Below, piece after piece: positions 2,747-3,581 of a stretch of 64,000 nucleotides of DNA. The position numbers and the translations under genes were made by a program. Origin of the DNA: an uncultured Solirubrobacterales bacterium (lineage in GTDB: Bacteria; Actinomycetota; Thermoleophilia; Solirubrobacterales; JBBDJG01); assembly GCA_963816975.1 (NCBI GenBank), contig CAWFMD010000006.1, positions 1,499,208-1,563,207 of the forward strand, in the 5' to 3' direction. How positions within the stretch are numbered: position 1 is the stretch's first letter; every line of letters begins with the position of its first letter. The notes beneath the pieces were generated by a model, which saw nothing but the letters and a program-made list of their open reading frames with translations, searched no databases and was not told the DNA's origin.

Positions 2747-2780
2747 AAAAAGAAGGGCGCCGTGCAAGCACGGCGCCCTT
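2747..2780 (-). terminator. Intrinsic terminator for a minus-strand transcript
   Basis: Perfect 12-bp stem AAGGGCGCCGTG-CTTG-CACGGCGCCCTT followed by CTTTTT on the minus strand. Confidence 0.85.
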
Positions 2781-3185
2781 GCCCCCCGCTAGCAAGGCTC
2801 CCCAGCGTCTAGCGCTGCCTCCCGGGAGCCTCGTATGTAACGACCGCCGCGAGGGCGGCCGCCGAGGCGTCGGCCTCATGGTGTGGCGCGAAGCGATGGC
2901 TCTTCGCGCAATCGGCCTGGAGACGGTGGAACGGTCTCCAGCCCCTGCCGGCCGACCCTGCCATGTTGCCCTCGGTAGGAATCGGCCATCTGTTGAGGAC
3001 GACGCACCCGCTCTTGACGATCCGGGTTCGCCGGACTATGGCGTTGCCACGAACGCATGTCGCACTGGGCGTGCGACGAGCCGCAATGGCCAAGATAGAA
3101 CGGCCAAGCCGCTCCGTGGCTGCCAATGGATCCTCCTTGTCCCGCGAATCACACGGACCGAAGTCCGCAGGCGAGTAAACGCCTG
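2747..3185 (-). ncRNA. Candidate large structured RNA (~440 nt); also contains a 105-codon ORF (2809-3126)
   Basis: About 10 consecutive hairpins, a cUUCGg tetraloop (3153-3168), G.U pairs that work only on the minus strand, an upstream TATAGT and a terminator at the 3' end. Confidence 0.55.
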
Positions 3186-3190
3186 TCGTG

Positions 3191-3229
3191 ACTATAGAGG
3201 CGACTGGACGGCCGGGCCATCTTTTTTTT
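3191..3229 (-). promoter_or_regulatory. Putative sigma70-type promoter (TATAGT -10, upstream A8 tract)
   Basis: Minus-strand TATAGT at 3196-3191, weak -35 (TGGCCC) 17 bp upstream, A8 run (3222-3229) in the UP-element position. Confidence 0.55.
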
Positions 3230-3338
3230 GGCGTCGAATCGGCAGCCCTGCGGCCACGATTCTTGACGCCTGCGACTGGATCGGTACGGCTCTGCCCGAC
3301 ACGCTTCGCGCGTCAACTCGATCGGACAGGAGGTCGTC

Positions 3339-3581
3339 TTGCTCGTACCTTTCCTTCACCAGCAACTCCTACTCGCGCGGCAGGCTCGGCTGGTGCATCG
3401 CGCCGGCTCTTGCACGCGTGGTCAGGGCACCGTGGAGTACGTCGCGCTGATCACTTTGGTGGCGCTCGTCATGGTCGGAGTGATCGCCGCACTCAAGAGC
3501 GCCCAGTTCGCAGAGGGCCAGGAGCTTGGCGCGATGATCCTGAAGAAGATCACCGAGGCCGTCAGCAAAGTGAAGTACTGA
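3339..3581 (+). CDS. Flp/Fap-type (type IVb/Tad) pilin
   Basis: RBS AGGAGG before TTG; G-X4-E-Y motif (RGQGTVEY) followed by a hydrophobic helix; 80 aa. Confidence 0.75.
   Translation: MLVPFLHQQLLLARQARLVHRAGSCTRGQGTVEYVALITLVALVMVGVIAALKSAQFAEGQELGAMILKKITEAVSKVKY

Follow-up and report, generated by a model that had tools for sequence, protein, structure and literature searches.

What does the minus strand encode between a histone-deacetylase-family gene and a flp-like gene, itself followed by an RNase PH gene, in the genome of an uncultured Solirubrobacterales bacterium? The locus lies in a 64,000-nucleotide stretch of contig CAWFMD010000006.1 (the window, meaning the whole stretch of DNA analysed, whose numbering is used throughout; its source genome is called G000). 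An earlier reading of the letters alone, hereafter the sequence-only reading, had proposed a self-contained, highly structured and novel large noncoding RNA (ncRNA) at this place. That core claim has come through a computational follow-up well, on the strength of covariation, a lack of codon-type conservation and negative scans of the Rfam database. We put the probability at roughly 0.8 that the unit, which occupies 3185-2747 on the minus strand and spans about 439 nt of near-continuous helices, is a stand-alone structured ncRNA gene of a new family, carried by one family-level clade of Solirubrobacterales. The novelty lies at the level of the RNA family, and the function may yet prove familiar.

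Base pairs and codons among the relatives

Covariation had been named by the sequence-only reading as a test of its proposal, and compensatory change is found in both alignments examined. In an alignment of 12 genomes RNAalifold draws 94 pairs, 31 of which carry compensatory changes. On the same alignment the 12 helices listed by the sequence-only reading are paired in 84.3% of the cells, against 37-45% when the partners are slid, and 35 of their 89 pairs have changed on both sides, against 10-18 for slid partners. Ten of these helices are kept: the six in the 3' part are paired in 77-100%, and CAGGCG/CGCCTG, CGGAC/GTCCG, GCCACGGA/TTCGTGGC and GTCGCAC/GTGCGAC in 67-82% across genera, between which the 5' part aligns poorly. 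The other two fare worse, since TCCGG/CCGGA is paired in only 48% and is not conserved, while TGGCC/GGCCA (70%) is doubtful, being rivalled and probably displaced by the better-kept hairpin GAGCGGC/GCCGTTC (89%).

The second alignment was made with a covariance model of the 3' 233 nt, termed R1, and holds 60 matches with 45 distinct rows; it retains one spurious reverse-strand row. Over its 2403 cells, 96.1% are standard pairs, compared with 37.5-44.6% when the partners are slid by 1-3 columns, and 29 of the 58 pairs have changed on both sides, compared with 6-11; the observed values were reached by none of 500 shuffles. Helices 1-5 of the model are 82-100% paired over the 45 distinct sequences, and both sides have changed in 24 of their 35 pairs. 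Judged from these alignments, it is base pairing, not codons, that has been under selection.

The codons in question belong to an open reading frame (ORF) that covers much of the unit and that the sequence-only reading had located correctly, together with its TTG start and the AAGGAGG box at 3138-3132:

3126-2809 (-): 105-codon ORF; start codon TTG at 3126-3124, stop codon TAG (2811-2809) within the 3'-hairpin loop

A search for a coding signal, another test named at the outset, gave no sign of codon-type conservation. In six intact sequences, a set that leaves out two frame-broken members of the genus and four distant genomes, the ratio of nonsynonymous to synonymous polymorphism (pN/pS) is 0.76 in frame, with 0.92 and 0.97 for the two alternative frames. 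Variable columns are spread over the three codon positions as 31/34/36 (of 106 each, seven genus members). The neighbouring deacetylase gene served as a control, with two genomes of gapped alignment and one partial genome left out; its pN/pS is 0.31, against 1.87 and 2.34 in the other frames (five of the same genomes), and its variable columns number 45/30/113 by codon position (four genus genomes). The frame is shifted in two of seven same-genus genomes, leaving ORFs of 30 and 91 codons, and three truncated ORFs of 27-36 codons occur among the relatives. Peptides of different genera have only the N-terminal MAA in common, and the ORF product matches no family in Pfam or NCBIfam, in keeping with the earlier remark that it resembled none. 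The observation that about a quarter of the codons end in A or T was also accurate: the G+C content at third codon positions (GC3) is 0.755, compared with 0.774 for the RNase PH gene and 0.85-0.93 for five more neighbouring genes. On these comparisons the 105-codon ORF is probably not a conserved protein.

Signals and predicted fold of the unit

The features of the unit, from its promoter to its terminator, are as follows.

3229-3222 (-): A8 tract, UP-element-like, in the upstream part of the promoter (3214..3229)
3219-3214 (-): -35-like TGGCCC, separated by a 17-nt spacer from the -10 box
3196-3191 (-): -10 box TATAGT; TATAGT or TATATT in 35/35 relatives
3185-3180 with 3173-3168 (-): P1 hairpin, compensatory change in 4/6 pairs
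3167-3163 with 3158-3154 (-): P2 hairpin with UUCG loop, compensatory change in 2/5 pairs
3132..3151 (-): conserved linker GAUUCGCGGGAC, then AAGGAGG (3138-3132); invariant or nearly invariant columns
3046..3123 (-): core of the 5' domain, with P4 formed by GCCACG (3120-3115) and CGUGGC (3051-3046), plus GGC/GCC
3114-3108 with 3104-3098 (-): P5 hairpin, 89% paired, 2 compensatory pairs
3077-3071 with 3065-3059 (-): further 5'-domain hairpin; besides P5 the domain holds variable hairpins
2863..3010 (-): four-way junction domain, closed by the long-range helix 3010-3000 with 2872-2863
2987-2977/2959-2950, 2941-2934/2924-2917 and 2909-2902/2893-2886 (-): junction hairpins enclosed by the long-range helix
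2842..2860 (-): hairpin GGCCGCC/GGCGGUC, helix 6 of R1, 96.5% paired, two-sided change in 5/9 pairs
2795..2831 (-): invariant 3' hairpin with arms AGGCUCCC (2831-2824) and GGGAGCCU (2802-2795)
2823-2818 and 2817-2803 (-): inside the 3' hairpin, the bulged GGGAGG, then stem CAGCG/CGCUG with loop CUAGA
2781..2794 (-): G-rich linker UGCUAGCGGGGGGC with palindrome GCUAGC; invariant, GCUAGC missing in one genus (the G007 group)
2780-2747 (-): intrinsic terminator, a 12-bp stem with CUUG loop, then CUUUUU (T-tract)

The A8 tract and the TATAGT box lie exactly where the sequence-only reading had placed them, as does the G(CUUG)C terminator with its T-tract. Among the distinct full-length relatives a tract of at least four A is present in 35/35 and TGG at the -35 position in 34/35; judging from the spacing alone, transcription would start at about 3186-3184. 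The arrangement of A-tract, TGG and TATAGT is not common to the promoters of the 6S, transfer-messenger (tmRNA), RNase P and signal recognition particle (SRP) RNAs in G000. The terminator stem has compensatory changes in 2 of its 12 pairs, and the length of its loop varies among the relatives.

The minus strand folds with a predicted minimum free energy of -234.8 kcal/mol (z = -5.8), and none of 100 shuffles folds as well. Two domains, a 5' and then a 3' one, make up the predicted architecture. Compensatory changes in P1 and P2 occur both within and between genera, and in other genera the two are replaced by a single nested hairpin. The linker that follows reads GAUUCGC(A)GGAC-AAGGAGG across the relatives, with AAGGAGG itself in 33 of 35 and two variants. 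All four sequence groups retain P4, with a shifted register (GGCAGC/GCUGCC in two groups), and it starts at UGGCAGC, which contains the putative start codon of the ORF. In the 3' domain the four-way junction is closed by CGGGTGCGTCG/CGACGCCTCG, a long-range helix of 10 bp that is 99% paired with 2 compensatory pairs and that was absent from the helix list of the sequence-only reading. The 3' hairpin is 100% paired and has one-sided changes only (G-U/A-U, C-G/U-G); it served as a search pattern, and its invariance in the metagenome set is therefore partly a matter of selection. Which strand is the functional one is indicated by G-U pairs, as had been proposed from the letters: in the model-based alignment one G-U pair is invariant (40/40 cells) and another is present in 36/43 cells, and both would be A-C mismatches on the opposite strand, which argues for the minus strand in agreement with the orientation of promoter and terminator.

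Two further observations concern the 3' end. Within 2781-2812 (-) the loop CUAG(A) and the linker palindrome GCUAGC are both self-complementary and could mediate RNA-RNA self-association; pairing of the loop CUAG with the linker GCUAGC finds no covariation in the variants and is unsupported. A single CCUUG (2797-2793) can pair with three AAGG strands, one at the base of the 3' hairpin, one at the base of the terminator (GCAAGG) and the 5' CAAGG, the last of which overlaps the Shine-Dalgarno (SD)-like box (3139-3135, minus strand). A conformational switch between these partners is possible; CCUUG and all three partners are invariant, so that no covariation signal can arise there. A pseudoknot search in which all column pairs were scored brought out no stack that was consistent, most of the pairs being false ones that reflect clades.

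Relatives, neighbours and traces of expression

Relatives were recovered by the homology search that the sequence-only reading had suggested, and all belong to one family of Solirubrobacterales. In a BLAST search of 61 related genomes, all six of the same genus proved to carry a full-length relative (83-89% identity), and five other genomes of the family a partial one. The 3'-hairpin pattern gave 12 records among one genome per GTDB species, most of them titled Solirubrobacterales, and 38 among metagenome contigs, one of them a chance match; the pattern matches L036 and L038 (GTDB scan) and L064 were set aside as chance, having no match to the model. Searched with R1 over 151 genomes of the order, the RNA is present in G000 and in 11 of the 17 other genomes of its family, or by genus in 6/6 (g1), 3/3 (g4), 1/2 (g2), 1/2 (g3), 0/1 (g5) and 0/3 (g6), tallies that count the unpublished genome G008 as a non-carrier. 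The 133 genomes of five other families yielded no accepted match; those in G021 and G126 (20-21 bits, 88 and 122 nt) were marginal and, judged on scores only, were not accepted. The RNA is thus confined to four of the six genera of a single family, in which its length, about 440 nt here, ranges from 418 to 486 nt.

The gene is single-copy in G000 and antisense to both of its neighbours: the deacetylase gene (plus strand, 1525-2733; Pfam E = 5.6e-90) runs towards it and flp away from it. Across the 30 RNA loci compared, deacetylase / RNA (antisense) / flp-rph-rdgB is the gene order wherever the flanks extend far enough. For g5 and g6, G010, G011 and G015 were checked. Each has the deacetylase and rph genes on a single contig, separated by about 0.5-2.7 kb, and in these three genomes no diverged copy of the RNA was detected either by motifs or by R1 with its filters off. 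In G010 the gap measures only about 460 nt. In G011, which lacks the RNA, a GT4-family glycosyltransferase gene (L094:2466-3422) directly follows the deacetylase gene, in antisense orientation, as the RNA gene does in G000.

The flp-like ORF on the plus strand (3339-3581, 80 codons) diverges from the RNA gene and has a GGAGG box upstream. In its product the motif G-QGTV-EY precedes a hydrophobic stretch, a pattern that we take to be Flp-type prepilin-like, and the product shows 65-85% amino-acid identity beside the RNA in the compared loci; Pfam returns only a sub-threshold match to a class III signal peptide (E = 0.012) and NCBIfam none. An open frame of 223 codons (2779-3450, plus strand) runs antisense through the entire RNA gene, which indicates that long spurious ORFs arise easily in the DNA of 65-75% G+C found here. 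In one same-genus genome the deacetylase match falls into two pieces (L002:2052-2216 and L034:3869-4033; 84% and 62% identity), which may reflect a frameshift or rearrangement at the 3' end of that gene, beside the RNA terminator.

Part of the stretch occurs in 24 public sequencing runs, 15 of which are recorded as RNA libraries. Four RNA libraries from four studies (two of soil, one of groundwater and one of rhizosphere) were examined, and all contain contigs of the 3' domain at 90-98% likeness: two cover 2783-2988 with 6 and 12 differences, one covers 2752-2857 with 2, and the others are shorter. In the same four libraries no contig covers the 5' domain or the flanking genes, a result that is uninformative as the relatives may be less than 80% alike there. 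Contig ends fall at 2783 in three cases and at 2752 in one; neither is taken as the 3' end of the RNA. These contigs are a hint that the RNA gene is expressed; the abundant stable RNA expected by the sequence-only reading is to that extent weakly borne out.

What the RNA may do, and what else it may be

Membership of a known family was sought with cmscan against 4227 Rfam families at E<=10, using 8 kb around the locus, 501 nt of it and the loci of four relatives. No family matched, Ms1 and 6S included, and the output consisted of terminator look-alikes and other chance-level matches far below threshold. ARAGORN finds neither a transfer RNA nor a tmRNA at the locus. The 6S RNA of G000 is encoded on another contig (65.5 bits), and its family RF00013 has no match here; RNase P RNA, tmRNA and SRP RNA, whose hallmarks the sequence-only reading had already found lacking in this unit, likewise stand elsewhere in the genome, each above the cut-off. 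Because every family membership tested came out negative, we speak of a new RNA class. A full-text literature search turned up no paper on a structured RNA of Solirubrobacterales or Thermoleophilia, judged by the matches listed and the openings of their abstracts.

Several orphan RNAs offer a general likeness. OLE, ROOL, GOLLD and raiA-motif RNA are large structured bacterial ncRNAs, all of them represented in Rfam. Like them, the RNA described here is stand-alone and several hundred nt long, with covarying helices, multi-way junctions, a narrow lineage, environmental RNA data and no function that can be deduced from its sequence. It matches none of them in sequence or structure and is smaller than OLE, ROOL and GOLLD. 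Unlike them, it has a conserved SD-like box followed by NUG, an open frame and a fixed neighbourhood of its own.

Clues to a function come from three purine-rich tracts, AAGGAGG in the 5' junction, the GGGAGG bulge and the G6 linker, which are among the most conserved segments drawn outside helices. The perfect 7-mer AAGGAGG occurs only 9 times in the window, and the GGGAGG bulge is present in all relatives. The predicted probability of being unpaired is 0.46 for AAGGAGG, 0.73 for the GGGAGG bulge and 0.32 for the G6 linker, against 0.34 for the whole RNA, so that the bulge is the only tract clearly predicted to be exposed, AAGGAGG being moderately so. On the reading that we favour, the RNA would work as RNA, its branched fold serving as a scaffold from which the purine-rich tracts are offered to a partner that is rich in pyrimidines or reads GGA. 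First among the candidates would be the anti-SD tail of 16S ribosomal RNA (rRNA), and a 30S subunit bound at the tract might either stabilise the RNA or be tied up or sensed by it. A precedent for stabilisation is STAB-SD, a 5' stabiliser of Bacillus messenger RNAs (mRNAs) in which a non-initiating SD-like sequence binds 16S rRNA and protects the transcript. The two have in common a perfect SD-like box near the 5' end and translation that is apparently not selected; the analogy is mechanistic only, and here a start codon follows the box. Pairing of the purine tracts with the anti-SD is a tentative proposal that we would expect to be wrong rather oftener than right. Still more speculative is the idea of a hitherto undescribed class of large, ornate RNA that poses as an mRNA without being translated for the sake of a product, and whose permanently exposed, perfect SD box and start codon, placed at the entrance of a rigid multi-junction fold, would capture 30S subunits (or CsrA) as a decoy or sensor. 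The 6C small RNA, as a C-rich partner, was not found in G000 (93% complete).

A number of observations pull the other way and should be weighed against the reading of an ncRNA gene and its proposed function. The plus strand folds nearly as well (z = -5.2), so that energy alone cannot pick the strand and promoter, terminator and G-U pairs are needed for the choice. A generic promoter scan finds no sigma-70 consensus site at the RNA gene; the promoter is accepted nevertheless because its elements are conserved in 34-35 of 35 distinct relatives. The model-based alignment (A3) was fitted to the model, with the 3' hairpin fixed by the search pattern. Covariation largely separates two or three clades, which makes the independent events fewer than the cells, and a scan of all column pairs produces many clade-driven false 'pairs'. 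The RNA-library contigs are assembled sequences from relatives, possibly derived from DNA, and carry no strand, ends or level. As to function, the G6 linker would for the most part be paired according to the prediction, initiation would be hampered by the position of the start codon at the base of the stable helices P4 and P5, and the 30S subunit or the anti-SD as partner is pure inference.

The remaining contrary points concern the reading frame, and they are also what speaks for the rival that survives best, a dual-function RNA or a structured mRNA. In this case the SD and NUG would be used and a frame of 81-117 codons translated, with either the act of translation or a fast-evolving basic peptide contributing to the function. 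In 33-35 of 35 relatives a UUG, AUG or GUG comes 2-12 nt after the AAGGAGG box. Of the 33 sequences in which the pattern found box and start, 30 have a frame that stays open for 80 codons or more; in-frame stops number 26, against 58 and 45 in the other frames; GC3 exceeds the values at first (0.64) and second (0.62) codon positions; and the in-frame pN/pS is slightly the lower. Against these stand the missing third-position bias, the frameshifted and truncated frames and the peptides and family searches described above. Persistence of an open frame is weak evidence for coding because all three frames are open in six relatives, and within one clade the spacing between start and 3' hairpin, taken modulo 3, assumes every possible value. 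In the NUG after the box the first base alone varies; since UGGCAGC is a strand of a helix, which leaves only that base free, conservation of a start codon is not demonstrated by it and the 'start codon' may be incidental. For the possible dual function raised by the sequence-only reading the evidence is divided: the SD-like box and an NUG are conserved and the peptide is not. Established dual-function small RNAs such as RNAIII/hld of Staphylococcus and SgrS/SgrT encode a conserved short peptide. With these the present RNA shares a long multi-hairpin form, a ribosome-binding site and an ORF; unlike theirs, its frame spans nearly the whole RNA without codon-type conservation. A translated RNA of this kind seems to us unlikely, though it deserves more weight than any of the readings that follow.

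CsrA would be the partner if the AAGGAGGAU box and the GGGAGG bulge either titrated this protein or were regulated by it. G000 encodes a canonical CsrA of 76 aa (PF02599, 83.8 bits; NCBIfam CsrA equivalog), and no FliW, the antagonist of CsrA, was found in that genome. The csrA gene (G000:C6:920747-920902; L114:2676-2906, minus strand) lies outside the window and not beside flagellar genes. The ACAAGGA within the linker fits what we take to be the core of the CsrA consensus obtained by systematic evolution of ligands by exponential enrichment. GGA is not enriched in the RNA (9 motifs against 8.1 +/- 2.2 in dinucleotide shuffles, with three relatives similar), and only two conserved GGA sites lie outside helices. 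Nor is there a signal of co-occurrence: 56 of 61 genomes from the order have CsrA, with the unpublished G008 and G046 among those counted, and the RNA is confined to four of six genera of one family. With the sponges CsrB and RsmZ the RNA has in common a stand-alone gene, GGA purine boxes and a genome with CsrA in which FliW went undetected; unlike them, it lacks a repeated GGA-loop architecture and GGA enrichment, and its distribution is unlinked to CsrA. We regard a CsrA-binding role as improbable.

The sequence-only reading had likened the stretch just before the terminator to the 3' end of Ms1, which raises the idea of an Ms1- or 6S-like RNA that binds RNA polymerase. As in Ms1 of Actinobacteria (PMC9130861, PMC4191392), there is a stand-alone gene in an actinobacterial lineage for a probably abundant RNA of the same order of size, longer than typical small RNAs and with 5' and 3' hairpins. 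Ms1 sequences are moreover described as diverging beyond the reach of BLAST or Rfam, and the Rfam family for Ms1 as covering only close relatives of mycobacteria (PMC9130861), which makes the missing Rfam match, even with 501 nt, a weak test. The same text portrays Ms1 as a rod of about 300 nt that opens into a central bubble and has short hairpins at its ends, its gene neighbours being a HAD-IB hydrolase and an oxidoreductase, and nowhere in its main part mentions Thermoleophilia (PMC9130861). The RNA here, of 418-486 nt, is branched in two domains with a four-way junction, is flanked by the deacetylase and flp-rph genes, and occurs alongside a bona fide 6S RNA. Identity with Ms1 is rejected on structure, synteny and the presence of that 6S RNA; the 3'-end likeness finds no support, and a polymerase-binding RNA of the Ms1 or 6S type seems very improbable. 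A cis-acting element in the untranslated region of a neighbouring gene, or an RNA of a mobile element (omega RNA, retron or intron), could be suggested by the intergenic position and high structure but is hardly credible for a single-copy, strictly syntenic gene that is antisense to both neighbours, has its own promoter and terminator, and has no reverse transcriptase, IscB or TnpB gene nearby.

If the locus is indeed an ncRNA gene, as we favour, it joins a small company. Large bacterial RNAs with many conserved helices are, to our knowledge, rare, and those whose roles have been solved tended to carry out unusual biochemistry. The lineage in question is an uncultured, soil-abundant actinobacterial one for which we know of almost no RNA biology on record. 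The covariation behind the RNA is unusually clean, and the RNA turns up in environmental RNA libraries. Its RNA presents an odd combination, a fixed ribosome-binding site attached to a reading frame that evolution has not protected, and this combination turns an mRNA-mimicking decoy or a ribosome-stabilised RNA into a testable idea. If true, an abundant RNA in the Thermoleophilia of soil would bind ribosomes or a regulator and serve as a decoy or a sensor.

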